In this document: positions 5,695 to 45,410 of the stretch, in pieces
How positions within the stretch are numbered: position 1 is the stretch's first letter
Layout of the letters: every line of letters starts with the position of its first letter
DNA from: Candidatus Aenigmatarchaeota archaeon
GTDB taxonomy: Archaea > Aenigmatarchaeota > Aenigmatarchaeia > GW2011-AR5 > JACRAC01
DNA: 45,641 nt
Assembly (NCBI GenBank): GCA_016213555.1
Contig: JACRAC010000008.1
Span: 1 to 45,641 of the forward strand
Reading direction: 5' to 3'
Program-made: the position numbers and the translations under genes
The notes under the pieces: generated by a model
What the model saw: only the letters and a program-made list of their open reading frames with translations
What the model was told of the DNA's origin: nothing
The model's database searches: none

Positions 5695-5712
5695 TTTGTA
5701 AAGCTTTACAAA
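5695..5712. promoter_or_regulatory. perfect 18-nt palindrome TTTGTAAAGCTTTACAAA (candidate BlaI-family operator)
   Basis: Lies 37-54 nt upstream of the repressor start, directly distal to a TATA-like run. TGTA/TACA half-sites are typical of BlaI/CopY operators. Confidence 0.5.
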
Positions 5713-5843
5713 AATAGTAAACTATATATACTAGTTAATGCAAATTACTATAAATTTATAAATCTTTTAATTAGAATATTTCAAATATTAAAAATTTTGG
5801 GTTTTGTGGGTATAAAAGTTTTGTAATTTAATAAGGGATAATT

Positions 5844-6521: not shown

Positions 6522-6531
6522 TGGTGATAAA

Positions 6532-6744: not shown

Positions 6745-6793
6745 TTTTTATTTTGTTTTAATTTTACATTATATTTTTATGTGGTGTTTTTAG

Positions 6794-9515: not shown

Positions 9516-10118
9516 ATGGAACATAAATGTGATCAATGTACTAGAACATTTGCTAGTATAGAAGGATTGAGTAGTCATAAGAAAGATAAACATACTGACT
9601 TAGTTGCTAGCAGCGAAGTTTCTAAGTCCAATTGGCATCTGTATGCTGTAATTGCAGTCATAATTCTTATTGTTATAGGATTAGGCGTTTTCTTTTTAAC
9701 ACAACCTAAATCAGATTCTCTGGATGTTATTCCATGTAATAACATGGAACAAAATGGGTTTCATATTCATGCGCATCTTGATATATTTGTTGATGGTCAA
9801 TTATATACAGTTCCTGCTGGTATAGGTATAACAAATACATGTCTTTATTGGCTTCATACTCATGATTACAGTGGAATTATTCATATAGAAGCTCCATCAA
9901 AGAGAACTTTTATGTTAGGACAGTTTCTTGATATATGGAAGAAATCATCTGTTGATTCTACTATGCCTATAGGATCACCTATAGCTTATGTCAATGGTAA
10001 AGATGTTTCTGTAGATTATAGAAATATTGAACTAAATTCTCATGATGAAATCGCGCTTGTTTATGGTAAAGCTCCTAAGGTAGTTCCTTCTTCATATGAT
10101 TTTCCTCCAGGAGAGTGA
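9516..10118 (+). CDS. C2H2 zinc finger - TM - extracytoplasmic His-rich domain protein
   Basis: CDQC-x12-H-x4-H classical C2H2 finger at the N-terminus and one TM (LYAVIAVIILIVIGLGVFFL). C-terminal GFHIHAHLDIFVDG...CLYWLHTHDYSGIIHIE. Confidence 0.6.
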   Translation: MEHKCDQCTRTFASIEGLSSHKKDKHTDLVASSEVSKSNWHLYAVIAVIILIVIGLGVFFLTQPKSDSLDVIPCNNMEQNGFHIHAHLDIFVDGQLYTVPAGIGITNTCLYWLHTHDYSGIIHIEAPSKRTFMLGQFLDIWKKSSVDSTMPIGSPIAYVNGKDVSVDYRNIELNSHDEIALVYGKAPKVVPSSYDFPPGE

Positions 10119-10182
10119 ATTTAGATTTCTTTTTAGTTAAGTTTATAGTCTAGTTTAATAAATACTAATTCTGTGGTGTTTG

Positions 10183-10210
10183 TTTCAAATCACTTGAGTG
10201 TGATTTGAAA
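10183..10210 (+). terminator. 11-bp stem hairpin downstream of 9516..10118
   Basis: tttcaaatcac / ttgagt / gtgatttgaaa. Confidence 0.35.
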
Positions 10211-10265
10211 ACTTAGTCGCATTCAAACAGAATGCTTCTAATTATTAAACGCCTTGGTGTTTAAC

Positions 10266-10784
10266 ATGGGAGAGATATATTTATTTACAGGGCCTGGAGG
10301 CGGTAAGACTACAAATGCCTTGGGATTAGCACTAAGATCTATTGGACATGATCATAAGGTTATTATAATACAATTTTTGAAGTGGTGGAAGCAAACAGGC
10401 GAGTATAAAGTACAAGACAAACTGACTCCGTTTTATGAGATACATCAGTTTGGTAGAAAGGGTTGGATTGGTCTTGAGAATCTTACAGATGATGATAGAA
10501 AACTTGCAAGAGAAGCGATGGAGTTTACTGAAAAAGCTGTAGAGGAAAAAAATCCTAATCTTCTTGTGTTAGATGAGCTCAATTTAGCAGCACATTGTAA
10601 TCTGGTTCCTATGGATGATATAATTGCTTGGTTGCAAAGACTAAAGCAAAGGAAAGATATGACAATAGCTATAACAGGAAGACATGCACCTGAGAGGCTT
10701 TTGGAGATATCAGATTATGTTAATATTATAGAGGTAAAGAAGATACCTAAAGAGTTTGGTACAACTAAAGGAATACAGTGGTAA
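10266..10784 (+). CDS. CobA/CobO/BtuR-family corrinoid adenosyltransferase-like P-loop protein
   Basis: GPGGGKTTNALGLALRSIGH, VIIIQFLK, LVLDELN and ITGRHAP motifs. ATG at 10266 has GGTG 6 nt upstream (the ORF track starts at TTG 10254). Confidence 0.7.
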   Translation: MGEIYLFTGPGGGKTTNALGLALRSIGHDHKVIIIQFLKWWKQTGEYKVQDKLTPFYEIHQFGRKGWIGLENLTDDDRKLAREAMEFTEKAVEEKNPNLLVLDELNLAAHCNLVPMDDIIAWLQRLKQRKDMTIAITGRHAPERLLEISDYVNIIEVKKIPKEFGTTKGIQW

Positions 10785-11054
10785 TGCGCTTAAATCTTTT
10801 CTATTTATTTATTCTTGAAGGTGAGTAAAACTAAGTTGCAATTCTTTCAGAACGGCTCCTTATTTTTCAACATCTCAAAAAATCCGGTGATTGAAAATTG
10901 TAGATAAGGCAGATAAGAAGAAAAAGCCAGGATGTTGTTGCTAAATTAGATTCTTTCTTTTTTGTTTTCCTATTTAAGTTCTATTATAAAATCTGATGCA
11001 CTCCTCTAGTTCATTATAGAGATCATAGATTTCTTATTCATATGCTTCGTCTGT

Positions 11055-11753
11055 CTAAACTACTACTCCTAACATTAATCCTATTCCATAGCCTGCTAAT
11101 GCAGACGCTATTCCTATGATTGCTATTTCCAAACCGCTTTTTATTGGACTGCCTGTTGTTATTCTAGCTTTCTGAACTCCTACAATGAATAAAATTATTA
11201 ATGAGAATATTATAGATCCTATTACAGCAGCTGTTACTGGCATGAATAAAAATGCTATTAATGGTATGAATGAACCTATCATCGCAGAAATTCCTACTAA
11301 TATAGCACTTTTTATAGGGCTTTGTTTTATATCATCTATAAGATTTAACTCTTCTTTCATCATTGTGTCGATCCAAAGTTTTTTGTTGGAGGTTATATGT
11401 TTTACTATGTCATTTAGTAATTTACCACGAAAACCTTTCTTGTGATATATGTCTCTAATTTCTTTCTTTTCTTCAAGAGGCATGTTTTCTATTTCCCATT
11501 TTTCTCTTTCTAACTCTGCCTTATAGAAATCTTTTTCTGATTTTGTTGAAGTGTATGCTACAGCTGCCATTGATATAGATTCTGCAAAAGCAGCTGCCAA
11601 TCCTGCTATCATTATTATTTTTAAATCTCCTGAAGCAACTGCCACTGCTAAGACAATTCCTAATACGTTTACTAACCCGTCTTGAAATCCTAGTATAAAG
11701 TCTCTTAAATCAGAACCAGATGTCTTATGCTTTTCCTTATGAAATAGTACCAT
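11055..11753 (-). CDS. VIT1/CCC1-family iron/manganese transporter
   Basis: DFILGFQDGLVNVLGIVLAVAVAS, a central helical cytoplasmic insert and C-terminal TMs. Confidence 0.8.
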   Translation of the reverse strand: MVLFHKEKHKTSGSDLRDFILGFQDGLVNVLGIVLAVAVASGDLKIIMIAGLAAAFAESISMAAVAYTSTKSEKDFYKAELEREKWEIENMPLEEKKEIRDIYHKKGFRGKLLNDIVKHITSNKKLWIDTMMKEELNLIDDIKQSPIKSAILVGISAMIGSFIPLIAFLFMPVTAAVIGSIIFSLIILFIVGVQKARITTGSPIKSGLEIAIIGIASALAGYGIGLMLGVVV

Positions 11754-13948: not shown

Positions 13949-14365
13949 TCACCTCACTATTAACTTTCCAGTTCCCATTCCCATTGAACAAGTTACTGGA
14001 AATTCTCCTGCCTTATTTGCAGTGAAAACTATTTTATTATCGTCGTTGCTTAGGTATTTTCTTAAGCTAAGAGATGGGATAAGAAAACTTCTGTAACATC
14101 CCGATATTGTATTCATGTCAGCCACTATAGTAACTTCATCACCAACATTAACAGAAGTTGGGGTAAATTTGTATATATTTCCTGTCATTGACATTTTTAC
14201 TGTTATATTCCCATTCTCAGATGTTTTTATTGGTTGTTTATCTTGATTAATTATAGGTAGTTCTGTTGTATTTTTAGGAGCTGATATTATTGCACTAGCT
14301 GCAACAATAAAAAAAGACACTATAACTACAATTCCTAATATTGCCACCATATTTTTTCTGTCCAT
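13949..14365 (-). CDS. exported cupredoxin-like metal-binding protein
   Basis: N-terminal TM. FTPTSVNVGDEVTI...GEFPVTCSMGMGTGKLIV is typical of Cupredoxin_1 proteins found next to CopA. Confidence 0.65.
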   Translation of the reverse strand: MDRKNMVAILGIVVIVSFFIVAASAIISAPKNTTELPIINQDKQPIKTSENGNITVKMSMTGNIYKFTPTSVNVGDEVTIVADMNTISGCYRSFLIPSLSLRKYLSNDDNKIVFTANKAGEFPVTCSMGMGTGKLIVR

Positions 14366-14458: not shown

Positions 14459-16645
14459 TTATAATTTTCTGAATTTTAATAGTATTGAGTTTGACACAAC
14501 TGATACTGAGCTAAGAGCCATTGCACCGCCTGCTATTACAGGACTTAATAGTATACCTGTTGATGTATATAGTACGCCCGCTGCTATAGGAATTCCTACT
14601 ATATTATATATCATAGCCCAAAACATGTTTTGTTTTATTTTGTTAAGAGTCATTCTGCTTAGTCTAAGAGCTCTTACAACATCTGTAGTGTTGTTTTTCA
14701 TTAGTATTATACCGCCAGTTTCTACTGCAACATCTGTTCCAGATCCCATAGCTATTCCTACATCTGCCTGAGCCAGAGCAGGAGCATCGTTTATTCCATC
14801 TCCTACCATTGCTACGATAAATTTTTTCTGTAATTTTTTCACATATGCAGCTTTTTGATTTGGTAGAACTTCAAAAAATACATTTTCTATACCTACTTTT
14901 TTTGCAATAGCTTTTGCTGTTCTTTCATTGTCTCCTGTTATCATATAGACTTGTATTTTTTGTTTTTTCAAAAGTTCTATAGCTTCTATTGAACTTTCTC
15001 TTATCACATCTGCAACAGCTAACAATCCAATAACTTTCTTATTTTCTGCAACTATCATTACTGTTTTTCCTTCATTTTCCATTTCTTTTATAGCATCTAT
15101 TTGATTTACTTTTATTTTTTCATCTTTCATTAATTTTATGTTTCCTATAGTTATTTTATTTGAACCTATTTTTCCCTGTACCCCATGACCTATTATTGCT
15201 TTAAACACTGAAACATCTTTCAAAGATATTTTTCTTTCTTTTGACTTTAGTATAATAGCTTCTGCAAGAGGATGTTCTGATTTATTTTCTATGCTAGCAG
15301 CTATCTGCAACAGGTATTTTTCATCTACGTCATATGTTTCAATATCTGTAACTTTTGGGTTACCTTCTGTTATTGTTCCTGTTTTATCAAAAACAACACA
15401 GTTTACTTTGCTTGCTGTTTCAAGGACTTCTCCATTTCTTATCAATATTCCATTTTGTGCAGCTTTTCCAGTACCTACCATTATTGCAGTTGGAGTTGCA
15501 AGACCAAGTGCACAAGGACATGCTATTACTATGACTGCTACGCCTACTATAAGTGCAAAAGAAAATGTAGCTCCTAATACAAAATACCATAGTAAAAATG
15601 TAGCTAATGATATTGACACAACTGCAGGAACAAAATATGCTGATATTTGGTCAGCAAATCTTTGTATTGGAGCCCGTGACCCTTGAGCATCTTCAACCAT
15701 TCTGATAATTTGCGATAATGTTGTATCTGAGCCTACTCTTGTTGCTTTGAATGTAAATGATCCATGCTTGTTTATTGTTGCACCTGTTACTGTATCTCCT
15801 TTATGTTTTTCAATAGGCATGCTTTCTCCTGTTATCATTGACTCGTCTATTGTAGAATAACCTGATATTATTATGCCATCAACTGGTATTTTTTCTCCAG
15901 GTTTTACTATAATTTGATCTCCTATTCTTACGTCATCTATTTGTATTGTAATCTCCTTACCTTTTCTTATTACTCTTGCCTTTTTAGGTGATAACTTAAT
16001 TAAAGAGCTTATTGCTTCGCTAGCTCTCCCTTTTGCAAGAGCTTCAAGATATTTTCCAAGTATTACTAGAGTTATCAAAACTGCAGATACTTCAAAATAT
16101 AATTCTGCCATTGGATTTGTTAGCATGTTGTATATACTGAAGAAATATGCTACTGATGTACCTATAGCTATTAGGGTATCCATGTTAGCTGTCTTATTTC
16201 TTAATGCAAGAAACATACCTCTATAAAAGTAATATCCTATTCCAAACTGGACTGGTGTAGATAATATAAGAAGTATGTATTCTTTTCCTGGAAGATGCAT
16301 GAAAAACATGCTTATTACTAGTGTAGGAATGCTTAGCGCAGCGCTTGCTAAAAGAAGCATTCTCATTTTAGAAAGCTCTTTAGCTCTTTCTATTTTATCA
16401 CGATCTATATCTGCTACGTCTATAGGAGAAGCAGTGTACCCTAAATTCTCTATTATTTTAACAATATTTTCTTCTGTTATAATACTAGATTCATACTCTA
16501 TCTTAGCTTTTTCTGATGAGAAGTTTACATTTGAATATTTTATTCCCTTTGTTTTGTTAAGTTTTTTCGTTATGTTATTTGCACAACTAACACAATGCAT
16601 TCCTTTGATAGATAGATTAGCTTTTTTTATTTCTTCCTTTTTCAT
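14459..16645 (-). CDS. copA: copper-translocating P1B-type ATPase
   Basis: HMA domain [13 protein letters not shown] motif ([11 protein letters not shown]), DKTGTIT and [10 protein letters not shown]. Confidence 0.92.
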
Positions 16646-17438: not shown

Positions 17439-17939
17439 TTACTTACTTTTTAATATAACAATATTACTCATGCCATGCCTTTTTCTTTCAACTAATCCTT
17501 GTATCTCCATTTTATCTAGGAGTCTGCTTACTTTTACTTTATTCATTCCTGATTTTGTAACAAGCTCTCCTTGTAGGATAGATCCTTCAGAATTTGATAT
17601 AATCTCATATATTTTCTTTGTTTCCTGACTAAGGTATTTTGGTTTAGGATAATATTTTTTAATTATAATTTCTTTTACAGTTTCCTTACTTTTAATATTA
17701 TTTATTAAAAGTATTCCTAGTCCTACAAATAATAGAATTACAGCAGAACCTAGAATGATTGTAAAATTAATATTACTTTGATCATGTAGGCATGTACTAC
17801 CTATGTAACAACTTCCTGTTTCATTCATTAGTTCTGTTGCTAAATTATCAGAATTAATTTTATTATATAAAGAGAAGAGTCCTAAGCCTAAAGATACTAT
17901 TATGAGAAAAATTCCTATATATTTTAACATTTTTTGCAT
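17439..17939 (-). CDS. membrane-tethered winged-helix regulator (small paralog type of 2019..2864)
   Basis: Two TMs flank a Cys-containing loop (GSCYIGSTCLH). C-terminal wHTH SQETKKIYEII...VSRLLDKMEIQGLVERKRHG. Confidence 0.6.
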   Translation of the reverse strand: MQKMLKYIGIFLIIVSLGLGLFSLYNKINSDNLATELMNETGSCYIGSTCLHDQSNINFTIILGSAVILLFVGLGILLINNIKSKETVKEIIIKKYYPKPKYLSQETKKIYEIISNSEGSILQGELVTKSGMNKVKVSRLLDKMEIQGLVERKRHGMSNIVILKSK

Positions 17940-18041: not shown

Positions 18042-18056
18042 TGTAAATAATCTACA
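18042..18056. promoter_or_regulatory. TGTAAATAATCTACA near-palindrome (14/15 match to 33621 and 34655)
   Basis: In the divergent intergenic region between 17939 (-) and 18149 (+). Confidence 0.4.
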
Positions 18057-32481: not shown

Positions 32482-33588
32482 GTGATAAATATGATAAATT
32501 ATGATGAATTTGGACCTGAAAAACTTATAGAATTTTATGACCCTAAGTCAAAAGTAAGAGGATTTCTTGTTATTGATAACACTACTAGAGGAGTTGGAAA
32601 AGGAGGAATGCGAATTGCTAATGTTACCATGGAAGAAGTTTTTAGACTTGCAAGGGCAATGACTTATAAAAATACTATGGCAGATCTTCCTTTTGGAGGA
32701 GCTAAATCAGGATTGATAATTCCAAATAATATAGATAAGGAAGCTGCTGTAAGATGGTTTTCAGAACAACTTAGAATAGTTATTCCAAAATACTATGTTG
32801 CAGGACCTGATATGAATTCTGGAGCAATAGAAATGGATATAATTGCAAAAATTTTAAGTAATAAGGCTTCTACTGGAAAATCTATATCTTTGGGAGGATT
32901 ACCACATGAGTTAGGATCTACTGGTTATGGGATTGCTCATTCTTTACTGGCTACTTTGAAACATTTGGAACATAATATAAATGAGACAACTGTAGCTATA
33001 GAAGGGTTTGGAAATGTTGGAACATTTACTTCTAAATTTTTGAGTGATGATGGAGCAAAAATAGTTGCTATTTCTGATAGTAAGGGAACTATTTATGATA
33101 GAGATGGTTTGGATATTGAGAAGTTGATAAAAGTTAAAAACGAAACAGGTTCTGTTATAAATTACCAAAGTTCAACTTCAAAAAAACTTACTACAGCAGA
33201 GTTATTTGGATTGCAAGTAGATGTTTTGATGCCTGGTGCAAGACCAGATTCTATAAATGATAAAAACTATACTCAAATAAAAGCTCATATCATAATTGAG
33301 GCTGGAAATGTTCCTATGACAGAGAGTTTGGAAGAAAGTTTTTATAAAAAAGGAGTTGTTGTTATACCTGATTTTGTTGCAAATGCTGGGGGAGTTATAT
33401 CTTCATGGGTTGAATATGAGAATGACAAAACTCCTACACCAAAAACTGTTATAGATTTAATGATGAGAGAAGTAAAGACAAGAGTTGGTAATAATACTAA
33501 ATTAGTTCTAGATAGAGCTGACAAGAATAACATATCTACAAGAGAAGCTGCAATGAATATTGTTAGAGAAAGACTTGTGTTGGAATAA
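32482..33588 (+). CDS. Glu/Leu/Phe/Val dehydrogenase-family protein (short form)
   Basis: GKGGMRI, LPFGGAKSGL catalytic Lys region and GFGNVG Rossmann motif. Confidence 0.82.
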   Translation: MINMINYDEFGPEKLIEFYDPKSKVRGFLVIDNTTRGVGKGGMRIANVTMEEVFRLARAMTYKNTMADLPFGGAKSGLIIPNNIDKEAAVRWFSEQLRIVIPKYYVAGPDMNSGAIEMDIIAKILSNKASTGKSISLGGLPHELGSTGYGIAHSLLATLKHLEHNINETTVAIEGFGNVGTFTSKFLSDDGAKIVAISDSKGTIYDRDGLDIEKLIKVKNETGSVINYQSSTSKKLTTAELFGLQVDVLMPGARPDSINDKNYTQIKAHIIIEAGNVPMTESLEESFYKKGVVVIPDFVANAGGVISSWVEYENDKTPTPKTVIDLMMREVKTRVGNNTKLVLDRADKNNISTREAAMNIVRERLVLE

Positions 33589-33620
33589 ATTACCCTTTAT
33601 ATTTGTTTCTGTTATCTCTA

Positions 33621-33635
33621 TGTAAATAATTTACA
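33621..33635. promoter_or_regulatory. palindrome TGTAAATAATTTACA (candidate operator)
   Basis: 7+1+7 perfect inverted repeat, 16 nt upstream of the ATG at 33651. The identical 19-mer atgtaaataatttacatat recurs at 34653-34671. Confidence 0.55.
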
Positions 33636-33650
33636 TATTAAGTGGATAAA

Positions 33651-34610
33651 ATGAAACAAGTTGCTATTTTACATCAAGGATTAGAAGGAGGAAATCCTTC
33701 TCTAATCAAGCACTCATGTTATTTGAGAGATAGTCTTGTAGAAGCTGTTAGAGATCTTGGATATAATCCGCAATCTGTTTATCTAGACGATTCTTTTACT
33801 TGGGTTTCTAGTTTAGAACAAATCAGAAATTTGCTAGTTGTTGTCAATGCTGCTGATTATGGACCGTTTTTTGATAGTACTTTAGAATCTGTTGTTCCTG
33901 CAATACTAGATAAAAAAGGTATTAGATATACTGGTTCTGATATGGGAGCTATAGATTTTACAAATGATAAACTAAGAACTAATTATGCTCTTTCGAAAGC
34001 TGGTGTATTAGTTCCTAAATGTTTTTCTATTGGAGACACAAATTCTTTTGAGTCATTAGATTTCCCACTCATAATAAAATATAGATCTGTTCATGGTAGT
34101 GAAGGAATTGATGACAGTTCTGTTGTTATGAATGAACGTGAACTGAAAGAAAAAGTAGATCGCTTAAAACAAACAAGAGATTCTCCTATAATTGCTGAGC
34201 AATATATACAAGGCTCTGGAATATATGAAGTTTGTGGAGGATTTTTAGGAAATGGTGACGATAGACTAGCACTTCCTGTAGCTTGTGTTAAATTTAATTC
34301 AGAATCTTCTCGAATAAGAACACAAGATCATAAATGGTCTGATGAAGATCCTATAGAATTTGTCGATTTGCCAGAATCACTAGAAAAAGAGATCCATAGA
34401 TATGTTTCAGACGCCGCAAATGCTATTGGAATGAGAGATTATGCTAGAATAGATTTTAGAATAGGAGTTGATGGCAGAGCTTACGCCATTGATACAAATG
34501 CAAATCCTGATTTAAATGAAGATGCAACTCTTTATAAAATGGCTTCAAAAACAGGACTTAGTTATCCAACATTTGTAGGAAAAATAATAGACTCTGCTCT
34601 TAGAAGATAA
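33651..34610 (+). CDS. ATP-grasp ligase (D-Ala-D-Ala-ligase-like)
   Basis: FPLIIKYRSVHGSEGI, IAEQYIQG and YARIDFRI...AYAIDTNANP. The ORF track starts at GTG 33642. Confidence 0.72.
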   Translation: MKQVAILHQGLEGGNPSLIKHSCYLRDSLVEAVRDLGYNPQSVYLDDSFTWVSSLEQIRNLLVVVNAADYGPFFDSTLESVVPAILDKKGIRYTGSDMGAIDFTNDKLRTNYALSKAGVLVPKCFSIGDTNSFESLDFPLIIKYRSVHGSEGIDDSSVVMNERELKEKVDRLKQTRDSPIIAEQYIQGSGIYEVCGGFLGNGDDRLALPVACVKFNSESSRIRTQDHKWSDEDPIEFVDLPESLEKEIHRYVSDAANAIGMRDYARIDFRIGVDGRAYAIDTNANPDLNEDATLYKMASKTGLSYPTFVGKIIDSALRR

Positions 34611-34654
34611 CTTTCTATAAGTAAAGTATTTAAACATTCGCTTCTACATATGTA

Positions 34655-34682
34655 TGTAAATAATTTACATATATATGTAAAT
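34655..34682. promoter_or_regulatory. TGTAAATAATTTACA palindrome overlapping a second palindrome TTTACATATATATGTAAA
   Basis: Three alternating TGTAAA/TTTACA half-sites, ending 10 nt before the GTG start and adjoining the AGGTGG SD. Confidence 0.55.
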
Positions 34683-34692
34683 AGGTGGCAAT

Positions 34693-35907
34693 GTGACATA
34701 CTCTACAACAGTTGGGGCAGAACTTGAACTTAATCTCTTAGATAGGCAAGGATATCTAGCAAATAGAGCTGATGATGTTTTGGCTGACTTGAAAAGAAGA
34801 AGCAATAGATATGTCTCAGAGTCTTCTATGACACAAGTTGAATTTAATTCTGAACCAGCTTCATCTATTCGAGAACTTTATAATAGGGCTAAAAATCAGC
34901 TTTCCGATGTTCTTGAGCCTGTATGTTTATCTCATGGAGTACAACCTGCTTCTATGAGTGAATATGGAGCTGGAAGAGGTGTTTGGAGAGATGGAAATGA
35001 AAGGTATGATGTTTATCCAAGGATTATAGGAGAAACTAGTAATAGTGAGTTAAATAGAATATCTGGAATACATCTTCATTTTTCACAACATCCTGATAGA
35101 AAATTGGATCAGTATAAAGTTCTTATTGCACTAGATCCTAGTTTTGCTTTTGCATCAACATCTCCTATTTACGATTTAAGAAATGGTCTTAATTGCCATA
35201 GAGTAAATCTGACTAGAAATATGCTGTTTTCTGAATTTCCTTTACATTGCAAACTTCCTGGTTATCCAACTTCTTTAAAAGATATAGAAGCAGAAAATCA
35301 ACTTAGACATCAGCAATGGATGCAAAAGGCAATAGAAGCTGGAATACCTGAGGAAACCTTTAAAGAACTTTTTAGTCCTGAAAATACTGGGTACCATCCT
35401 ATAAGAAAAAGAGATGAAGAAAAATTCGGCCCTACAGGAACATTTGAAGTAAGAATATTTGACTCGGCTCCTTTAGATATCCTTGCAGGTATAGCTGCTC
35501 TTTACAAGGGATTTCAGGATAGAGTTTTTAATGATCAAATACCTGTAACTGTAGCAAATGCAGATGGAAGATATTCTTTTAGTTCATCTAGAATAGTTCT
35601 TCCAACTACAGATACTCTTAGAGGATTTGAGAGAAGTGCTATATCAAGAGGACTTAGATCAAATGGCATTCAAAATTATTTAGATCAAGCATTGTGGTTT
35701 GCTTCTAGAGGACTTTCAGAAGAAGATAGAAAATATTTAGATGTTTTGAATAATAGTTTATCTGTTTCTGCAAATCCTGCAGAAGAATTGCTAAGTTTTA
35801 TGGTAGAAAAAGGAATATACGGTAAGGCCTTTACACCAGATCAATGTGCTCAAGCTAATTTATTTATGAGAGATAGGTATCTTAAAGGACTTTTATCAAC
35901 AAATTAA
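34693..35907 (+). CDS. GCS2-family carboxylate-amine ligase (YbdK/glutamate-cysteine-ligase-2-like)
   Basis: VGAELELNLLD N-terminus, SGIHLHFS, FEVRIFDS pattern. 404 aa. Confidence 0.7.
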   Translation: MTYSTTVGAELELNLLDRQGYLANRADDVLADLKRRSNRYVSESSMTQVEFNSEPASSIRELYNRAKNQLSDVLEPVCLSHGVQPASMSEYGAGRGVWRDGNERYDVYPRIIGETSNSELNRISGIHLHFSQHPDRKLDQYKVLIALDPSFAFASTSPIYDLRNGLNCHRVNLTRNMLFSEFPLHCKLPGYPTSLKDIEAENQLRHQQWMQKAIEAGIPEETFKELFSPENTGYHPIRKRDEEKFGPTGTFEVRIFDSAPLDILAGIAALYKGFQDRVFNDQIPVTVANADGRYSFSSSRIVLPTTDTLRGFERSAISRGLRSNGIQNYLDQALWFASRGLSEEDRKYLDVLNNSLSVSANPAEELLSFMVEKGIYGKAFTPDQCAQANLFMRDRYLKGLLSTN

Positions 35908-35997
35908 ATTTAGCGTATTCTAATACCTTATACTTCATTGTATTTCTCAGATTTGTTTAGTTCTTTTTGATTTAAAGTTTTCTGAGATTCTATAAAA

Positions 35998-36723
35998 ATG
36001 ATTATTGATTTTCATGTTCATTATGGACAAGATATAGATGGACAAAATACTACAATGGAACAGATTTCTAGAGGGCTTGTTACCAATGGTGTCTATAAGA
36101 CTGTTGTGTTTCCATTTAATTCTGGAAGATTGTTGGAGGATTCTAGAAAAATTTATGAAATGTCTAGAGATAGAATATCAATAATTCCTTTTCTAAGATT
36201 TGATCCAAGCAATATATCACAAGAAGATCTTCGAAAAGCTCTTGATATGGGATATAAAGGAGTAAAACTTCATCCTACTTCTCAGAGATTTTATCCAGAT
36301 GATCCTAATATAACTTGGATATATGATGAAATATCTAGGTATAAAATACCTATTTTATTTCATTGCAATACTTCTGTAAATGAACCAATGGCTCAACCTT
36401 CTCATGTGTTAAATCTAGCTGAAAGATACCCTGATCAAATATTTGTTCTAGGACATTGTATTGGCGGAGATGTTAGTCCTTTTGAAGAAGTTTCTAGATA
36501 TTCAAATGTTTATGTTGACACATCTGTGGATTCTTATAAAGTTTTGTACGAAAGAGTTTGGCAAATGTTTAAATTTGATAGATTTGTTTTTGGAAGCGAT
36601 TTTCCTTATAGCGATGTTGATATAGAGCTTCTAAAAATTCAGAGAGCAAATGTTCAAGATGATTTGAAAGAGAAAATTTTATATAAAAATGCCTGCAAAA
36701 TTCTTGGATTAAATATGTGCTAG
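35998..36723 (+). CDS. metal-dependent amidohydrolase (Amidohydro_2/TIM-barrel type)
   Basis: IIDFHVHYG, GVKLHP, LFHC, LGHC and FGSDFPY motifs. Confidence 0.72.
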   Translation: MIIDFHVHYGQDIDGQNTTMEQISRGLVTNGVYKTVVFPFNSGRLLEDSRKIYEMSRDRISIIPFLRFDPSNISQEDLRKALDMGYKGVKLHPTSQRFYPDDPNITWIYDEISRYKIPILFHCNTSVNEPMAQPSHVLNLAERYPDQIFVLGHCIGGDVSPFEEVSRYSNVYVDTSVDSYKVLYERVWQMFKFDRFVFGSDFPYSDVDIELLKIQRANVQDDLKEKILYKNACKILGLNMC

Positions 36724-36734
36724 AAAGAAATAAA

Positions 36735-37340
36735 TTATCCCAAATTTACTACAGGTACTACGTCAGCTCCGCTTGCAGCTTGGTAGTAATGTTTTTCTTG
36801 GAAGTTGAACCAGCCTGCTATTATGTTTCCTGGGAAGATTTTTACAGCTGTGTTGAAGTCACGGACTTTATCATTATATCTGGATCTTTCTACTGATATT
36901 CTGTTTTCAGTTCCTGCTAGTTCATCCATTAGCTGAGCTACTATTTCATTTGATTTTAGATCTGGATAATTTTCATACACTACAAGCAATCTGCTGATAG
37001 CTGTATCTAATTGAGTCTGGTATTTTATTTTGTCATCTATTGTTGATGCTTGAGTCCAACCACTTCTAAGGGCTGTTATGTTTGTAAGAAGATCTTTTTC
37101 AAAAGTCATATAACCTTTTACAGAACTGACTAAGTTTGGTATAAGGTCGATACGACGTTGGTATTGGGTTTCTACATTAGACCATTGGCTTTGTACACTT
37201 TGGTCTTTAGTTACAAGAGAATTATATGTTCCCCAAATCCAAACTACTATCACTAGAACTACTATCACTAGAATGATTAATGCAATTATTTTTTTTGTGA
37301 AAAAGCTTGGAGTTTCTTTTGGTATAGACTTTTTTGCCAT
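36735..37340 (-). CDS. lemA: LemA-family protein
   Basis: N-terminal TM. YNSLVTKDQSVQSQWSNVETQYQRRIDLIPNLV. Confidence 0.88.
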   Translation of the reverse strand: MAKKSIPKETPSFFTKKIIALIILVIVVLVIVVWIWGTYNSLVTKDQSVQSQWSNVETQYQRRIDLIPNLVSSVKGYMTFEKDLLTNITALRSGWTQASTIDDKIKYQTQLDTAISRLLVVYENYPDLKSNEIVAQLMDELAGTENRISVERSRYNDKVRDFNTAVKIFPGNIIAGWFNFQEKHYYQAASGADVVPVVNLG

Positions 37341-37358
37341 ATCTAATATTTACACCAG

Positions 37359-38225
37359 ATGTTTAAAAAGGTTTTTTTTCTATATATTATGATGAAGAAA
37401 TATGTAGTTCTTATAATAATTGTTGTGTTTTCATCCTTTCTTCTATCTTCTGCAGCTTTTGCTGAGTATTCTTTTCCTAAACCAAATGGATATGTAAACG
37501 ATTATGCAGGTGTTATAGGTAGTGGATCGACATACATAAACTCTATCATAACACATACAGAACAAAACACTAGTGCAGAAATAGCTGTTGTGACATTAGA
37601 TAGTATAAATGATAGTGGGTTAGACACAAAGACTTATGCGGTTGAATTATTTCAACAATGGGGCATTGGAAAAAAAGATTTGGATAACGGAGTTCTTGTT
37701 CTGCTTGTTATGGATCAAAGAAGAGTAGAAATAGAAGTTGGTTATGGATTAGAGGGTATACTGCCCGATGGAAAAGTAGGGAATATTATAAGAGCAAATA
37801 CTCCTTATCTCAAAGAAGGTAATTATTCAATAGGACTTGGAAGAATTGTTAATGACATAAGTAGTTTGATTATTTTAGATCAGAATAGTCACAATAATAG
37901 TTCTAATATAAAATCTGGAAATGACTTTGGTTTAGCTTTGTTAATATTTTTTGCTTCTCTTGGAGTTATCCTATCAGTTATTTTTATAATTTATCGATCT
38001 GTTACACAAAGAAAATGCCCTAAGTGTGGAACAAAAATGAGCTATAAAATTGCTGGGGATTTCATAGTGTACACTTGTCCTAAATGTAAATACAAAGAAA
38101 AGAAGAGAAGATTGCATACTGCTATAATTGCTGGGTCATCCGGTTCTAGTGGCGGTGGTTTTGGCGGAGGCGGAGGATTTGGAGGTGGAGGCTCTGGTGG
38201 TGGTGGAGCTGGAGGAAGTTTTTAG
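37359..38225 (+). CDS. TPM-domain (YgcG-like) protein with post-TM zinc ribbon and Gly-rich tail
   Basis: GYVNDYAGVI...AEIAVVTL...FQQWGIGKKD..VEIEVGYGLEG, then a TM. CPKCG..CPKC and GGGFGGGGGFGGGG. The start is more likely MMKK at 37389. Confidence 0.75.
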   Translation: MFKKVFFLYIMMKKYVVLIIIVVFSSFLLSSAAFAEYSFPKPNGYVNDYAGVIGSGSTYINSIITHTEQNTSAEIAVVTLDSINDSGLDTKTYAVELFQQWGIGKKDLDNGVLVLLVMDQRRVEIEVGYGLEGILPDGKVGNIIRANTPYLKEGNYSIGLGRIVNDISSLIILDQNSHNNSSNIKSGNDFGLALLIFFASLGVILSVIFIIYRSVTQRKCPKCGTKMSYKIAGDFIVYTCPKCKYKEKKRRLHTAIIAGSSGSSGGGFGGGGGFGGGGSGGGGAGGSF

Positions 38226-38353: not shown

Positions 38354-41300
38354 ATGGATAAAAATAAAACAAACCTTTTAAAATATTTTATAACTGCTTC
38401 TATAGTCTTATTATTCTCAGTTAGTCTTGCTTATGCAACTCCTTTACCTGGTACAAATGCTGATGTTGACAGAGTTTGGTTTAATTCTTCTTCAGATTTT
38501 TTAAATTCTACTGCAAATGCATCTAATGCTGATATAAACAATGTAAAATTCCCAAATCTTACTTCTGAATCGCTTTATCTTGGAATGGAATATATTTTCA
38601 TACAAGCCAACTTTTCTGTATCAACTGCAGGTGTTGTTGGTGCTACTGGATCACAAAATGTTAGCTGGGAATACTCAAATGGAACAAGTAATGAAAGCTG
38701 GAAATCTTTAACAATTGTAACTAATACTTGTCAAAACTTTACAGCTGCAGGAAACTGCTCTATAATATTTAATCCTCCTACTGATTGGTCAATTAACACA
38801 TGGAAAGACAGATCTTTGTATTGGATAAGGGTAAATGGTACTGGAAATTATTCAACAAATGCTAGTGTTGCTCAGATTTCTGTTATTGAATATAATGTTG
38901 CTTTTAATGTTACAGATCAATTAGGATCAGCTTTAAATGATACTGCTTTTACTACTTTCAAAACAAATGATACAAATGGAGTTTATTCTACGAGAAGAGC
39001 AGGTAAAGGATGGGAACTTGCATTACAAACAGGAGTTCAGCATGACATAAGTGTTAATACTACTGGTTATGTAAATGCTACAAAATCAACAACATCAAAT
39101 GCTAATACTTCTTTGTTTAATTTAACTAACTTTAATCAATCATTTACAATAAAAATTTTGAATATTACCGACGAGCTAGGAAATGTATTAGCTCCACTTA
39201 ACGGAGCTGCTGGTATAATTGTTTCAGATAATGGAAGTGTTACATATGAGAATAATATAGCTTACATAAATGCATCAAATGATAATAATCTTACTAGATC
39301 TATTAACCTAAACGCTTCAAAAGCTGGTTATGTTAATAAGAGTTCTTCAGTTGCAGGTGTTTCAAGTTTAGGTCAGAATGTTACAAATGTTTCAAATTTA
39401 TTGTTCACAATAAAGGTTTTGAATATTTCTGATGAATTAGATAATAGATTATTATCATTGAATGGAGTAGCTGGCATAGTTGTAACAGATTCAGGATTTG
39501 TAACATACTCAGCTGATGTAGCTTACATCAATGCAAGTGCTGCAACAACTAACTTAAACGCAAGTAAATCTGGATATGTAAATAGATCATCATTTTCAAT
39601 AGCAGGTGTATCAAATGGTGGACAAAATTCTACAAACATATCAGGATTAAAGTTTACAGTTAGAATCAATAACCTTACAGACGAGCTAGGAAATAAACTT
39701 TCTCTACTTAATGGAGTTAATGGCATAGTTGTAACAGATTCTGGTGTAGTAACTTATTCAGGTGACGTAGCTTACATCAATGCGTCAGCAGCTACAACAA
39801 ATCTAAACGGTTCAAAATCTGGATACGTTAATCAATCTTTAACAGTAGCAGGTGTCTCAAATGCTGCTCAGAATTTTACAAATATATCAAACTTGAAGTT
39901 TACAATCAGAGTAAACAACCTTACTGATGAACTAGGAAATAAATTACAACCTCTAAATGGTGTAGCTGGCATAGTTGTAACAGACTCAGGAGTTGTAACA
40001 TACTCAGCTGATGTAGCATATATCAATGCTTCAGCTGCAACAACTAACTTGAATGCAAGTAAATCAGGATATGTTAACAAGACTTTAGTAGTAGCAACAT
40101 CTAATGCTAATCAAAATTTCACAAATGTTTCAGGAGTACAGTTTACAATTAAAATCTCTAACCTTAGAGATGAGTTAAGCAACAACTTAGCACCTCTAAA
40201 TGGTGTAGCTGGCATAGTTGTAACAGATTCAGGATTTGTAACATACTCAGCTGATGTAGCTTACATCAATGCTTCAGCTGCAACAACTAACTTGAATGGT
40301 TCAAAGTCTGGATACGTAAACAGTTCATTAGCTGTCCCAGTTTCAAACTCTGTGCAGAACAATACAAATATCACAAATCTAAAATTCACAATTAAAATCT
40401 CTAACCTTAGAGATGAGTTAAGCAACAACTTAGCACCTCTAAATGGTGTAGCTGGCATAGTTGTAACAGATTCAGGATTTGTAACATACTCAGCTGATGT
40501 AGCTTACATCAATGCAAGTGCTGCAACAACTAACTTGAATGGTTCAAAGTCTGGATACGTAAACAAAACTCTAGTAGTAGCAACTTCAAATGCTAACCAA
40601 AACTTTACAAATGTTTCAGGATTGTTATTTACAGTTAAGGTATTGAATATAACTGACGAACTAGGTCATGTTATAGTTCCTCTTAATGGTGTTGTAGGTT
40701 CTATAGTAACAACAAACGGCTCTGTAACATACAACTCAAACATAGTTTATATTAATGCTTCATCAAGTCCAAATCTAACAGCATCAAGATCTGGTTATTT
40801 GAATGTAACATTATCAGGAGTAGGTATTTCAAATAGTGCTCAAAATGTTACAAGTATATCTAATCTTGCATTTACAATAAAGATAACAAATGTAACAAAC
40901 GAATTAGGCAATAGAATAGGAGATTTAGATGGTTCAACTGTTGTTTTGGTATCTTCATCAGGAGATGTTCAATACAGTGGAGGAGTTGCATATATTAATG
41001 CGAGCACTACAGCTAGTATAAATGCTTCAAGTTCTGGTTATGTTAATCAAACTAAGATAGTAGGAGTAGCATTAACTCAAAACTCTACTACAATATCAAG
41101 CTTACCATTTACTTTGAAGATATTAGTAGTATCTGATGGTGGACAGGCTCTTACAGATGCATCAATAACTTTATCTAAATCAGGTGTAACTATTACATCC
41201 ACACCTACAACTAGAGTATCAAATGCATATTATTATGCAATAAATCAATCAACATTTTCAACATTAGACTTTACTGTAACAGATGTTGGATATATAGCAG

Positions 41301-42178
41301 AAACTAGAAATACTGTTGCAATAGACACTGCAAATCAGAAATTACAATCAATTACATTGAATTCAGCTCCATCAGGAGGAGGATCATCTGGAGGAAGCAC
41401 TACACCATCTGTACCAACAGCTTCATCATCAATAGATAAGTTGACAAATGATGTTCCTTCCTCAGTTGTAAGTACTTTGAAGGAAAGTGCTTTAGTCAAA
41501 CTAGATATTACATTAAATTCAGATCAAACAGGTGTAAACTTAATATTTAGTAAACCATCTACAAACCCAGTATCAGTAGCTCCTTCAGGAAATGTTTATC
41601 AATATATATCAGTATCTCATAATATCCAAGAATCAAAATTCAAGTCAGTTAGATTTGTATTTAATGTTGATAAGTCTTGGTTAACTTCAAACAGTATAGA
41701 TACTTCAAAAGTATCTCTTGAAAGATATGAGACAGATCATTGGACAAAGTATGGTGCTAGTATGGTATCTCAAAATGACACATCTGTATCATATGAGACA
41801 ACAGTTCCTGGATTATCTAACTTTGCAGTAACAGGTGAAAAGCAACTAACAGAGTGTACATCTGGAAAGAGATGTGATGGTAACCAAATACAAGAATGTA
41901 CAAATAACTTGTGGGTAACTTCACAAACTTGTCAATATGGATGTGATAGTACAACATATAATTGTAATCCACAGCCAGTAGATCAACCAGTACAAGAGCC
42001 ACAACCAACTACAACACCAAAAGAAACAACAACAGAGACCACTCCTACACAAACAACAAGTGAGATTCCAATGACATATGTTTATGCAGGATTAGGTCTA
42101 TTGGTTATAGTTGTAATAGCAGGAGTTGCTTATTGGAAAATGAAAAAACCAGTTAAATACGCAGGCTATAAAAAGTAA
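38354..42178 (+). CDS. giant N-glycosylation-sequon-rich surface protein: tandem Ig-like repeats, PGF-pre-PGF-like domain, Cys-rich module, Pro/Thr linker, TM anchor
   Basis: GGGGGG SD and a signal peptide. About 10 repeats beginning FT(I/V)(K/R), with dozens of NxS/T sequons. Also YQYISV..VRFVFNVDKSWL..VSLERYETDHWTKY..VPGLSNFAVTG, a 6-Cys module and a C-terminal TM with a KK tail. Confidence 0.85.
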   Translation: MDKNKTNLLKYFITASIVLLFSVSLAYATPLPGTNADVDRVWFNSSSDFLNSTANASNADINNVKFPNLTSESLYLGMEYIFIQANFSVSTAGVVGATGSQNVSWEYSNGTSNESWKSLTIVTNTCQNFTAAGNCSIIFNPPTDWSINTWKDRSLYWIRVNGTGNYSTNASVAQISVIEYNVAFNVTDQLGSALNDTAFTTFKTNDTNGVYSTRRAGKGWELALQTGVQHDISVNTTGYVNATKSTTSNANTSLFNLTNFNQSFTIKILNITDELGNVLAPLNGAAGIIVSDNGSVTYENNIAYINASNDNNLTRSINLNASKAGYVNKSSSVAGVSSLGQNVTNVSNLLFTIKVLNISDELDNRLLSLNGVAGIVVTDSGFVTYSADVAYINASAATTNLNASKSGYVNRSSFSIAGVSNGGQNSTNISGLKFTVRINNLTDELGNKLSLLNGVNGIVVTDSGVVTYSGDVAYINASAATTNLNGSKSGYVNQSLTVAGVSNAAQNFTNISNLKFTIRVNNLTDELGNKLQPLNGVAGIVVTDSGVVTYSADVAYINASAATTNLNASKSGYVNKTLVVATSNANQNFTNVSGVQFTIKISNLRDELSNNLAPLNGVAGIVVTDSGFVTYSADVAYINASAATTNLNGSKSGYVNSSLAVPVSNSVQNNTNITNLKFTIKISNLRDELSNNLAPLNGVAGIVVTDSGFVTYSADVAYINASAATTNLNGSKSGYVNKTLVVATSNANQNFTNVSGLLFTVKVLNITDELGHVIVPLNGVVGSIVTTNGSVTYNSNIVYINASSSPNLTASRSGYLNVTLSGVGISNSAQNVTSISNLAFTIKITNVTNELGNRIGDLDGSTVVLVSSSGDVQYSGGVAYINASTTASINASSSGYVNQTKIVGVALTQNSTTISSLPFTLKILVVSDGGQALTDASITLSKSGVTITSTPTTRVSNAYYYAINQSTFSTLDFTVTDVGYIAETRNTVAIDTANQKLQSITLNSAPSGGGSSGGSTTPSVPTASSSIDKLTNDVPSSVVSTLKESALVKLDITLNSDQTGVNLIFSKPSTNPVSVAPSGNVYQYISVSHNIQESKFKSVRFVFNVDKSWLTSNSIDTSKVSLERYETDHWTKYGASMVSQNDTSVSYETTVPGLSNFAVTGEKQLTECTSGKRCDGNQIQECTNNLWVTSQTCQYGCDSTTYNCNPQPVDQPVQEPQPTTTPKETTTETTPTQTTSEIPMTYVYAGLGLLVIVVIAGVAYWKMKKPVKYAGYKK
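39143..41107 (+). repeat. in-frame tandem coding repeats, 8 clear units of 237-261 nt (mostly 243 nt)
   Basis: Unit starts at 39143, 39404, 39653, 39899, 40142, 40385, 40628 and 40871. Degenerate units flank on both sides. Confidence 0.85.
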
Positions 42179-43967: not shown

Positions 43968-45410
43968 TTAGATTTTATCAGATCTATAGAGACGTATTTT
44001 ATATACAAAGAATGTGTATGTTTTTGATGGAATTTCTTTTAATTTTTCTACTAACCATTTTACATCATATACATAACCTACAAAACGATACATTGCTTTA
44101 GCTGGGTGTACTACTGTTAGTTTCCATGTAAGTCTTAGTAATGGTTCTGTCTCTGGTTTTGTATAGTCTTTTTGTATTTTTGGAAGAAATGCTAATGATA
44201 CTAATCTTACTATGAATGACAGGAAGAAAATTGTTGTTAGAGCTGCAACGCCCATCATTAATGATATTTCAAAATATTCTATCAAGATACTTGCTAGTAA
44301 TGTTCCACTTACTGTTGCTAATCCTGCAAACAAAGTATGGTTTGCTATATAGCCAGCTCTTTTATTTTCAGGTGTTGATGAAAGAAGAAAGTTAAATGTT
44401 ACTAGAGTCCATCCTCCAAACATAAATCCATCAAAAATATGTATCAATATTAAATGTTCTACTGTTGTTGCAAACATCCAGAACAATGGTATAAAACATA
44501 TCATAATACTAGTTATTATTAAAATTACTCTATCTCCATATTTGTCGCTGAATTTTCCCCAATATGGTTGTGATAATATTGCTATCAATGCGTTTATGGT
44601 TATTAGTACAGCATACCATATGTATCCTATATCTAAGTTCTTTATCATATAGACTGTGTAGAATGGAGATGATATTGCTATTGCAAAAGATACTATGCAC
44701 ATATAAATTGTAAACCAAACGAAATTTGAATGCATCTTCATTGAGAATGCTATGTCTTTAATAGAAAAACTAAAGGAGTGTTTATAATGAAATTCTGACT
44801 TTACAGGAGGTTCATATATTTTTAAGAAGAAGTAGACTGCGAAAAGACCTATTATAATAGATAAAAAGAATAATATTCCAAACCCAAATACGACTAGCAT
44901 TATTCCTGATGCTACTGTAGTAAGTAGTCCTGCTATTCCTGTTATCATATTTCTTTTTCCAAAATATTCTCCTCTTCTATTGGGCGGTACAATATCTCCC
45001 ATTAGACTGCTCCATGCTGGGTTTCTTATGCCATTTAGAAAACATATTGTGAAAACTATTATCATTAATAGAAGCACTTGATATATTGGAATTATTGCAA
45101 TCAATAGTATTGGAATCCATAGTAATCTTGACAGAGTATATGACATAGTCCATATTGCTTTTCTGCTCATCATACTTACTAGACGAGCTCCTGGTATTTG
45201 TCCTAGCGCACTTCCTAAACTTTGTAAAACCCCTAATAATCCTATTTCTTTATTTGTTGCGCCTAAGCTTATTGCATATGGTGATATATAGTCCCAGACT
45301 AAATGAGATGATGTTGTTCCAAACAAGCCTTCTTTTATAGAAGAATCAAGGCTCTTTTCTGTAGTATCTTCTACTTTTTTATTATATTTTTTTGGAGGAG
45401 TCGGATTCAT
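43968..45410 (-). CDS. MFS transporter
   Basis: 480 aa, about 12 TM helices, PPNRRGEYFGKRN loop motif. Confidence 0.82.
   Translation of the reverse strand: MNPTPPKKYNKKVEDTTEKSLDSSIKEGLFGTTSSHLVWDYISPYAISLGATNKEIGLLGVLQSLGSALGQIPGARLVSMMSRKAIWTMSYTLSRLLWIPILLIAIIPIYQVLLLMIIVFTICFLNGIRNPAWSSLMGDIVPPNRRGEYFGKRNMITGIAGLLTTVASGIMLVVFGFGILFFLSIIIGLFAVYFFLKIYEPPVKSEFHYKHSFSFSIKDIAFSMKMHSNFVWFTIYMCIVSFAIAISSPFYTVYMIKNLDIGYIWYAVLITINALIAILSQPYWGKFSDKYGDRVILIITSIMICFIPLFWMFATTVEHLILIHIFDGFMFGGWTLVTFNFLLSSTPENKRAGYIANHTLFAGLATVSGTLLASILIEYFEISLMMGVAALTTIFFLSFIVRLVSLAFLPKIQKDYTKPETEPLLRLTWKLTVVHPAKAMYRFVGYVYDVKWLVEKLKEIPSKTYTFFVYKIRLYRSDKI

Follow-up and report, generated by a model that had tools for sequence, protein, structure and literature searches.

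A ligase/hydrolase gene cassette with a shared palindrome is replaced between close archaeal relatives and may direct synthesis of a γ-glutamyl-type peptide

We analysed a 45,641-nt contig stretch of a Candidatus Aenigmatarchaeota archaeon (hereafter the window; coordinates are positions in it unless a comparison locus is named). Four plus-strand open reading frames (ORFs), confirmed at 32482-36723 by ORF listing and translation, encode a short ELFV-family dehydrogenase, a Ddl-fold ATP-grasp ligase, a divergent GCS2/YbdK-fold carboxylate-amine ligase and an Amidohydro_2 TIM-barrel metal enzyme, with spacers of 53, 82 and 90 bp between them (Table 1). Searches with Pfam and NCBIfam hidden Markov models (HMMs), together with a fold search for the GCS2-like protein, show that the family calls of a preliminary description of this DNA were right at superfamily level, and that none of the four proteins reaches any curated orthologous-group cutoff; the genes do not, as that description had allowed, each fall into a well-characterised group. 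Comparison with 41 fetched loci (L001-L041) reveals the most unusual feature of the locus, missed by the preliminary description: the cassette at this site differs from one close relative to another.

Table 1. Coordinates of the genes, the replaceable cassette and the putative regulatory sites
Feature	Coordinates	Strand	Basis
ELFV-family dehydrogenase, short, glutamate type	32482..33588	+	ELFV_dehydrog E 1e-54; ELFV_dehydrog_N E 2.6e-17
Replaceable cassette	33570..36725		blastn against congeneric L023: blocks end at 33569, resume at 36726
TATA-like box TTTATAT, inferred ATP-grasp promoter	33596..33602	+	sequence read
Putative operator 1, TATGTAAATAATTTACATA, ~25-30 nt downstream of the TATA-like box	33619..33637		
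Ddl-fold ATP-grasp ligase, probable start ATG 33651	33642..34610	+	Dala_Dala_lig_C 2.9e-15; ATP-grasp_3 0.0019
TATA-like box TATTTAAA, inferred GCS2 promoter	34627..34634	+	sequence read
Putative operator 2, identical 19-bp palindrome (34653-34671) plus extra left half-site TATGTAAAT (34674-34682)	34653..34682		
Divergent GCS2/YbdK-fold carboxylate-amine ligase; GTG start, AGGTGG just before	34693..35907	+	fold model and family HMMs
Amidohydro_2 TIM-barrel metal enzyme, 241 aa	35998..36723	+	PF04909 E 8e-23, 82 bits (cutoff 26.4)

Replacement of the ligase/hydrolase cassette is seen in two pairs of close relatives. In the first pair, the window and L023, 13 flanking proteins are 67-95% identical, with the dehydrogenase at 81% on one side and LemA at 82% on the other; inside the cassette, by contrast, blastn finds only a 300-bp patch in the GCS2 gene, 69% identical. 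Between the breakpoints the window carries ATP-grasp, GCS2 and Amidohydro_2 genes, whereas L023 carries GCS2, ATP-grasp, a 119-aa protein and a C45 hydrolase; the GCS2 proteins are 45-47% identical and the ATP-grasps 22-28%, and the L023 ATP-grasp belongs to another lineage that groups with bacterial sequences in a neighbour-joining tree. The second pair, L009 and L039, is independent of the first: the regulator, MFS and M74 proteins are 93%, 78% and 71% identical, whereas the ATP-grasps share only 36% and the GCS2 proteins 46%, nucleotide similarity is absent across the cassette, and the slot between GCS2 and MFS holds C39 in L009 and Amidohydro_2 in L039.

For the GCS2-like ligase, an AlphaFold2 (AF2) model built from 20 homologues, with a predicted local distance difference test score (pLDDT) of 93.2, finds YbdK (1TT4/1R8G) as its best Foldseek matches (E 3e-11; template-modelling (TM) score 0.66-0.77, TMt 0.75-0.77), followed by plant and E. 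coli glutamate-cysteine ligases (GCLs), with PafA, Dop and glutamine synthetases (GSs) clearly lower; the modelled protein thus has a predicted GCL/GS-like fold. A search of PDB sequences with the GCS2 profile returned only a non-significant plant GCL (E 0.64). Residues E10, E12, E50, H127, H129, R238, E252 and R254 are invariant in the 20-sequence alignment A1, a pattern that appears to fit GCLs. The GCS2 assignment made in the preliminary description stands by fold and by the 18 of 20 family members that match GCS2, among them relatives above the Pfam cutoff (25.1 bits in L023, 33 in L039 and 57.3 in L041), although the window protein itself falls under that cutoff. A profile search among 1.84 billion 50%-identity cluster representatives retrieved 442 representatives of the clade at E<=1e-3, and all 10 members sampled (search E 2e-49 to 4e-24) score below every curated GshA/YbdK cutoff: the clade is a small, divergent, uncharacterised branch of carboxylate-amine ligases. 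In its tree, which is star-like, ligases from almost any two of the gene architectures described below are 38-47% identical. A bacterial match, L022, was set aside as a canonical GCS2 protein (190 bits) in an unrelated gene context. Tandem GCS2-like paralogues occur in L008 (5062-6294 and 7001-8227; ~33% identical to each other's group), and in L036 a second GCS2-like gene begins at the contig end (5231-5482).

The ATP-grasp, whose start was inferred from homologue length (319-aa database entry P0022), belongs by sequence to the ATP-grasp superfamily, with the C-terminal domain and the Mg ligands: its motif RIDF...IDTN matches RvD...mEvN of Ddl, and the R, D, D/E and N Mg/ATP positions align. 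We rejected its identification as a D-Ala-D-Ala ligase, since the Ddl N-domain and the D-Ala-binding residues are absent and the score is below the cutoff. Dala_Dala_lig_N (PF01820) gave no match in Pfam, the protein can be aligned to Ddl structures from residue 83 onward only, and it scores 83 bits against the NCBIfam Ddl model (cutoff 243). In the HMMER alignment to 3R23, AKY of Ddl becomes HKW and S-L becomes A-T; we take the positions concerned to be the D-Ala-binding Y216, S281 and L282 of E. coli Ddl, which are W and A-T here. The "Ddl-like" label of the preliminary description is therefore correct for the fold, but not for the N-domain or the D-Ala-binding residues, and the alignment indicates a Ddl-fold ligase for a substrate other than D-Ala-D-Ala. 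Homologues adjoin GCS2 in L009, L010, L019, L024, L025, L035, L036 and L039, and an ATP-grasp of some kind lies beside GCS2 in at least nine distinct loci. Relatives also occur in other settings: L037 (832-3540) combines one with a lysine 2,3-aminomutase-type radical SAM enzyme and a GNAT protein, and L038 (4965-10336; a Geothermobacteraceae bin) has a similar set plus a second ATP-grasp and an HDAC-like deacetylase. The two sets look like an uncharacterised β-lysine peptide cluster.

The dehydrogenase lies directly 5' of the ligase cassette in L023 and also in L036, a distant Woesearchaeota-type contig in which it is 60% identical. It is 365-368 aa long (probable start ATG 32491, from the length of the homologue in L023), lacks ~28 N-terminal residues relative to glutamate dehydrogenase (GDH) structures, a short form that is kept in L023 (365 aa) and L036 (366 aa), and scores 212 bits against an NCBIfam equivalog cutoff of 750. 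Alignment with the T. maritima and P. furiosus GDHs shows that the Lys of KGG, of MTYK and of GGAK, the Asp of PD and the Ser of GGVxxS are retained; by reference to C. symbiosum GDH, these are presumably the γ-carboxylate binders (K89, S380), the α-carboxylate binder (K113) and the catalytic pair (K125, D165). Given that the glutamate-binding and catalytic residues are retained, the protein looks like a true glutamate dehydrogenase, which fits the glutamate option that the preliminary description had offered for its substrate. Near the ligase, amino-acid dehydrogenases with one or other of two unrelated folds are found repeatedly: an ELFV type in the window, L023, L036 and L007, and an AlaDh_PNT type in L020 and L033, where two AlaDh_PNT-type homologues (5509-6774, minus strand, and 9997-11136, plus strand) flank a DUF3335-GCS2-GATase_4 core.

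The Amidohydro_2 barrel has the residues of a metal enzyme: D4, H6, H8, K90, H92, H122, H153 and D201 are invariant in 34 homologues, and D4, H6, H8, H122, H153 and D201 form the metal-ligand set. Its AF2 model (pLDDT 96.9) most closely resembles, at 14-18% identity (Foldseek), the γ-resorcylate, 2,3-dihydroxybenzoate (2,3-DHBA), LigW and ACMSD decarboxylases and uncharacterised small barrels. As a statement of activity, the "amidohydrolase" of the preliminary description was a Pfam name only, and these structural neighbours do not bear it out. Amide hydrolysis by the barrel is instead suggested by gene context, namely its positional equivalence with C39, GATase_4 and C45 enzymes in sister cassettes; the barrel gene adjoins GCS2 in four genomes (the window, L036, L039 and L041).

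The two ligase genes share a palindrome. The 15-mer TGTAAATAATTTACA occurs exactly at 33621 and 34655, with ~0.002 exact copies expected in the window, and extends at both sites to the perfect 19-bp palindrome TATGTAAATAATTTACATA; the common operator proposed in the preliminary description for the ATP-grasp and GCS2 genes is thereby borne out as an identical element before both. Because it lies ~25-35 nt downstream of a TATA-like box, the palindrome would cover the expected transcription start. The motif TATGNAAATWATTTNCATA is present in only two of the 41 fetched loci, L023 and L036, at the equivalent promoter each time, and a CTTTATAT box precedes the palindrome in both as well as in the window; the L023 version, TATGCAAATAATTTGCATA, carries a symmetric change on both arms, and the L036 version is TATGAAAATAATTTGCATA. 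The palindrome looks like a conserved binding site of a dimeric regulator. The dehydrogenase has its own TATA-like box; no full operator was found upstream of it, and a half-site at 32457 was rejected, as it has 3 mismatches and lacks a counterpart in L023. Upstream of the barrel gene there is no copy of the palindrome. At that gene an inverted repeat, TCTCAGA (35945-35951) and TCTGAGA (35982-35988), brackets a TATA-like TTTAAAG, and in L036 a related CTTCTGAGT precedes the ELFV gene and again the ATP-grasp gene (1020-1084, 2185-2302); this repeat is a possible second site of regulation.

The genes that adjoin the window cluster include no regulator, and BLASTP found in the window no homologue of the ~320-aa Lrp/AsnC-type regulator that flanks the cassettes of relatives. 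The window palindrome is absent from the regulator-bearing loci, and L009-type loci have a different conserved promoter region. Elsewhere in the window, TGTAAATAATCTACA (18042-18056) is a 1-mismatch copy of the operator core (~0.08 such copies expected by chance) and lies ~100 bp upstream of a membrane-anchored DUF7343/MarR winged-helix protein (17439-17939, minus strand), which is a candidate for the missing regulator. A scan of the whole window found no Rfam family at gathering score, and therefore no riboswitch, and ARAGORN found zero tRNA genes.

We compared ~28 distinct archaeal loci in which the GCS2-like ligase has a relative. ELFV, ATP-grasp, GCS2 and Amidohydro_2 follow one another in this order in L036 too (5.5 kb, 36% G+C, against ~31% in the window) with identities of 60, 40, 38 and 54%, though different genes lie upstream; the preliminary description, which had treated the genes as a functional unit and looked to synteny in relatives, is upheld in this respect. 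Seven architectures can be distinguished: (a) DUF3335 papain-like protein, GCS2 and GATase_4, usually followed by GH3, a small uncharacterised gene and a glutaredoxin-like gene; (b) a divergent Lrp/AsnC-type regulator with a double winged helix-turn-helix, Ddl-like ATP-grasp, GCS2, stand-alone C39 peptidase, MFS and M74 peptidase; (c) the same with Amidohydro_2 in place of C39 (L039); (d) regulator, GCS2 and Amidohydro_2 (L041); (e) regulator, GCS2, GshB/RimK-like ATP-grasp and GATase_4 (L004); (f) ELFV, GCS2, a different Ddl-like ATP-grasp, an uncharacterised 119-aa protein and a C45 N-terminal nucleophile (Ntn) hydrolase (L023); and (g) the window type, found in the window and L036. A hydrolase (C39, DUF3335, EgtC-like GATase_4, C45 or Amidohydro_2) adjoins the GCS2-like ligase in nearly all of these loci, L006 being the only complete locus without one, and an ATP-grasp and an Lrp/AsnC-type regulator often accompany the pair. 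Cassette genes overlap by 4-35 bp in L004, L019, L025 and L036, which suggests translational coupling.

The hydrolases of relatives are of several kinds, and BLASTP found in the window no homologue of their C39, DUF3335 or GATase_4 proteins, nor of their glutaredoxin. GATase_4 lies beside the ligase in 17 distinct loci; its N-terminus can be read cleanly in L004 and L007, where both proteins start MC (Cys2), and the best NCBIfam match of the L004 protein is EgtC (2e-16), below the EgtC cutoff. EgtC-like Cys2 Ntn hydrolases are a class that cleaves γ-glutamyl amides. The stand-alone C39 proteins (L009 5466-5936, L019 5121-5600) retain the catalytic Cys. In the papain-like DUF3335 proteins that adjoin GCS2 (L001 7153-7749, L007 4581-5186), T, A or S stands at the catalytic Cys position, with the His and Asp positions retained; they may use another nucleophile or be non-catalytic.

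We favour, with a probability of roughly 45%, the reading that the locus is an operator-controlled modular cassette in which two ligases and one hydrolase make and trim a γ-glutamyl-type small peptide. Starting from the gene families and folds, the palindrome and its conservation, the synteny and the cassette replacement, we infer substrates, an order of steps, a hydrolytic role for the barrel and repression as follows: the dehydrogenase would interconvert 2-oxoglutarate and glutamate, supplying or reclaiming glutamate; the GCS2/YbdK-fold enzyme would use ATP to activate a carboxylate, most likely the γ-carboxylate of glutamate, as an acyl phosphate and join it to an amine; the Ddl-fold ATP-grasp would form a second amide bond to give a γ-glutamyl di- or tripeptide or, alternatively, would act on a γ-glutamyl-protected amino acid; and the barrel would trim or recycle the product, a role that relatives may fill with C39/DUF3335 papain-like enzymes, EgtC-like GATase_4 or C45 Ntn hydrolases. 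A dimeric repressor, encoded away from the cluster, would switch both ligase genes through the common palindrome. Given that the GCS2-like enzyme has a GCL/YbdK fold, that a glutamate-type dehydrogenase is adjacent and that relatives frequently pair the ligase with an EgtC-like Cys2 Ntn hydrolase, it probably forms a γ-glutamyl amide. The outcome may be either a γ-glutamyl di- or tripeptide as final product or, as known from EgtA/EgtC and butirosin biosynthesis, a γ-glutamyl group that serves only transiently as a handle. Exchange of the cassette between close relatives makes it probable that strains differ in their product.

Several observations weigh against the proposed γ-glutamyl cassette. 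The window GCS2-like protein scores only 14.5 bits on Pfam GCS2 (PF04107; cutoff 21; NCBIfam E ~6e-5), and its whole clade lies far under every NCBIfam GshA/YbdK cutoff; every characterised structural neighbour of the barrel is a decarboxylase and none is an amidase; the dehydrogenase lacks a full operator and sits in the conserved flank outside the replaceable cassette, and its linkage to the cassette, seen in three genomes only, could be positional within one lineage; and common descent, not function, may account for much of the synteny among relatives (GH3, glutaredoxin and others).

A second reading, which we regard as unlikely, is that the product is a low-molecular-weight thiol: the GCS2-like enzyme would make γ-glutamylcysteine, the ATP-grasp would take the role of GshB to yield a glutathione (GSH) analogue, and the barrel would degrade it. 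The structural ranking, YbdK first and then the plant and E. coli GCLs, speaks for this reading, and a GCS2-type GshA makes γ-Glu-Cys in Haloferax, with GshA-family matches in DPANN archaea noted, though not characterised, in the same review (PMC7278568). Moreover, at least nine loci of relatives have a glutaredoxin-like gene in the vicinity of the ligase, directly adjacent to it in L021, L007 encodes a DsbA/thioredoxin protein, the ATP-grasps of L004 and L007 weakly match glutathione synthetase, and GATase_4 finds EgtC as its best match. However, the relatives' glutaredoxins are of YruB/NrdH type (CPWC; VGF in place of the GSH-binding GG.DD), their gene belongs to a block that is syntenic across relatives, so that its link to the ligase may be positional, and the window has no homologue of it; the sole window protein with a thioredoxin/glutaredoxin domain (6794-8176) lies ~25 kb from the cluster. 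The window ATP-grasp is Ddl-like rather than GshB-like, neither a GSH-S-type ATP-grasp nor a GSH-dependent redox partner was found near the cluster, and strain-level replacement would be unexpected for a housekeeping redox buffer. The thiol product suggested in the preliminary description is thus weakly favoured by the genes near relatives' ligases and disfavoured by the type of those genes and by their absence beside the window cluster.

The Ddl fold of the ATP-grasp also accommodates a cell-envelope or muropeptide role, in which the ligases would make a D-amino-acid or γ-linked peptide, either anew or out of fragments scavenged from bacterial walls. Relatives L009, L010, L024, L035 and L039 add a MepA-like M74 endopeptidase and an MFS transporter, and relatives also add a NagZ-like GH3 enzyme, an M55 D-aminopeptidase and an amino-acid racemase scoring above the CuyB/asp_race cutoffs (L007). 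We nevertheless find this reading decidedly unlikely: the accessory genes do not adjoin the window cluster, the sole window MFS gene (43968-45410) being ~7 kb off; the Ddl N-domain and D-Ala-binding residues are missing; the cluster contains no Mur-type ligase or glycosyltransferase; and ATP-dependent ligases would be unexpected in a purely catabolic salvage pathway.

Modification of peptides or proteins, either by Pup-like tagging or by maturation of a ribosomally synthesised and post-translationally modified peptide (RiPP), with the hydrolase as de-modifying or leader-cleaving enzyme, is harder still to credit. PafA and Dop do share the fold of the GCS2-like protein (TM ~0.45-0.49), a ligase paired with a hydrolase is typical of reversible tags, and in six loci GCS2 is followed by a stand-alone C39 protein with intact catalytic Cys and His and by an MFS exporter; but YbdK and the GCLs are structurally much closer than PafA, no conserved tag-like small ORF was found, and the reading fits the C39/MFS cassettes better than the window, which has Amidohydro_2 and not C39. 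To our knowledge, Ddl-type ATP-grasps are not of the graspetide type, which also counts against RiPP maturation. For the window we rejected the RiPP reading, because its spacers are too short to hold a precursor gene. Equally, a known defence system was dismissed: PADLOC models matched none of the four window proteins, nor the C39, DUF3335, GATase_4 and C45 proteins of relatives.

That four unrelated housekeeping genes are neighbours by chance is very improbable and already contradicted by the synteny and operator data: each gene does have its own promoter-like spacer, the dehydrogenase is without a full operator and the Amidohydro_2 homologue of L040 stands alone, but two genes carry identical 19-bp palindromes, L036 retains the order of all four genes at 38-60% identity, and GCS2-Amidohydro_2 and ATP-grasp-GCS2 adjacency persists in many divergent loci, with overlapping frames.

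Directly upstream of the cluster, on the minus strand, runs a string of proteasome-alpha, Rrp42, Rrp41, Rrp4 and SBDS genes; directly downstream (36735-38225) are LemA (minus strand) and a TPM-domain/zinc-ribbon protein (plus strand), 82% and 67% identical in L023. Next comes a predicted surface protein of 1274 aa (38354-42178) with a membrane anchor at its C-terminus and many ~90-aa repeats in which N-x-S/T sequons abound; the repeat region matches itself and L023 at 65-71% nucleotide identity. A thioredoxin/glutaredoxin-cupredoxin fusion protein (6794-8176), a small cupredoxin-like protein (13949-14365) and a P-type copper ATPase judged by eye from its translation, without a domain scan (14459-16645), look like a copper-handling set unrelated to the cluster. 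Taxonomically labelled close homologues of the cluster proteins come from Woesearchaeota or Nanoarchaeota (DPANN) metagenome bins, the few exceptions being four "uncultured Methanosarcinales" bins and one partial protein in a Bdellovibrionales bin; by these homologues the source is a DPANN archaeon of the Woesearchaeota/Nanoarchaeota type.

DPANN archaea have stripped-down genomes with very little biosynthesis. Given that two ATP-consuming ligases are kept in such genomes, appear to be tightly regulated and vary between close relatives, the cluster likely matters for the DPANN lifestyle. The system is small, comprising three or four genes and one 19-bp operator, and it bears on which small molecules, thiol or otherwise, these archaea make; the repeated swap of non-homologous hydrolases at one slot is, moreover, a natural experiment for the functions of Amidohydro_2, DUF3335 and stand-alone C39 proteins. 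A bolder version of the proposal, and to our mind a long shot, is that this is a hypervariable, repressor-controlled DPANN locus in which each strain's cassette yields a different γ-glutamyl or other amide-linked peptide outside central metabolism; such a peptide could, for instance, signal in interactions with the host, act as a Trojan-horse antimetabolite or decorate the cell surface. If true, it would be the first diversifying "natural-product-like" locus in reduced episymbionts.

Set beside known systems, the cassette resembles each in part. Like the GshA and GshB pathway, it pairs a GCL/YbdK-fold ligase with an ATP-grasp, with glutamate as the likely acyl donor; unlike that pathway, its ligase clade lies far below the GshA/YbdK cutoffs, its ATP-grasp is Ddl-like and not GSH-S, and it has a dedicated barrel enzyme, a palindromic operator and swapping between close relatives. 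With EgtA/EgtC of ergothioneine biosynthesis it may share the logic of adding and then removing a γ-glutamyl group, and relatives place the ligase beside GATase_4; however, none of the loci showed a partner EgtB or EgtD, GATase_4 scores under the EgtC cutoff and the window has Amidohydro_2 in the place of GATase_4. The window ATP-grasp has the C-terminal ATP-grasp domain and the Mg/ATP ligands of Ddl, but differs in lacking the N-domain, in the Y216 to W and S281-L282 to A-T substitutions and in its score (83 versus 243 bits). The ACMSD/γ-resorcylate decarboxylase branch provides the best structural matches to the barrel (TMq ~0.8) and has the D-x-H-x-H, H, H, D constellation in common with it, whereas the barrel has 241 rather than ~320-350 aa, only 14-18% identity and no aromatic-acid pathway context, and stands in a position held by peptidases in sister cassettes.

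Literature searches for a YbdK-type ligase with an ATP-grasp, or for Ddl or peptidoglycan in Woesearchaeota, returned nothing relevant. The general kind of locus is known already: as cited in PMC2938197, neighbourhoods in which ATP-grasp and COOH-NH2 (GS/GCS-like) ligases stand with peptide-processing enzymes, and from which novel peptides were predicted, were described by Iyer, Abhiman, Burroughs and Aravind in 2009. The examples cited there are bacterial, whereas the window type is DPANN-specific and includes Amidohydro_2, a GDH and cassette replacement. As far as our searches reached, four features appear to be undescribed: a ligase clade specific to DPANN archaea, its association with Amidohydro_2 and a short GDH, a palindromic operator that is conserved, and repeated cassette replacement between close relatives.

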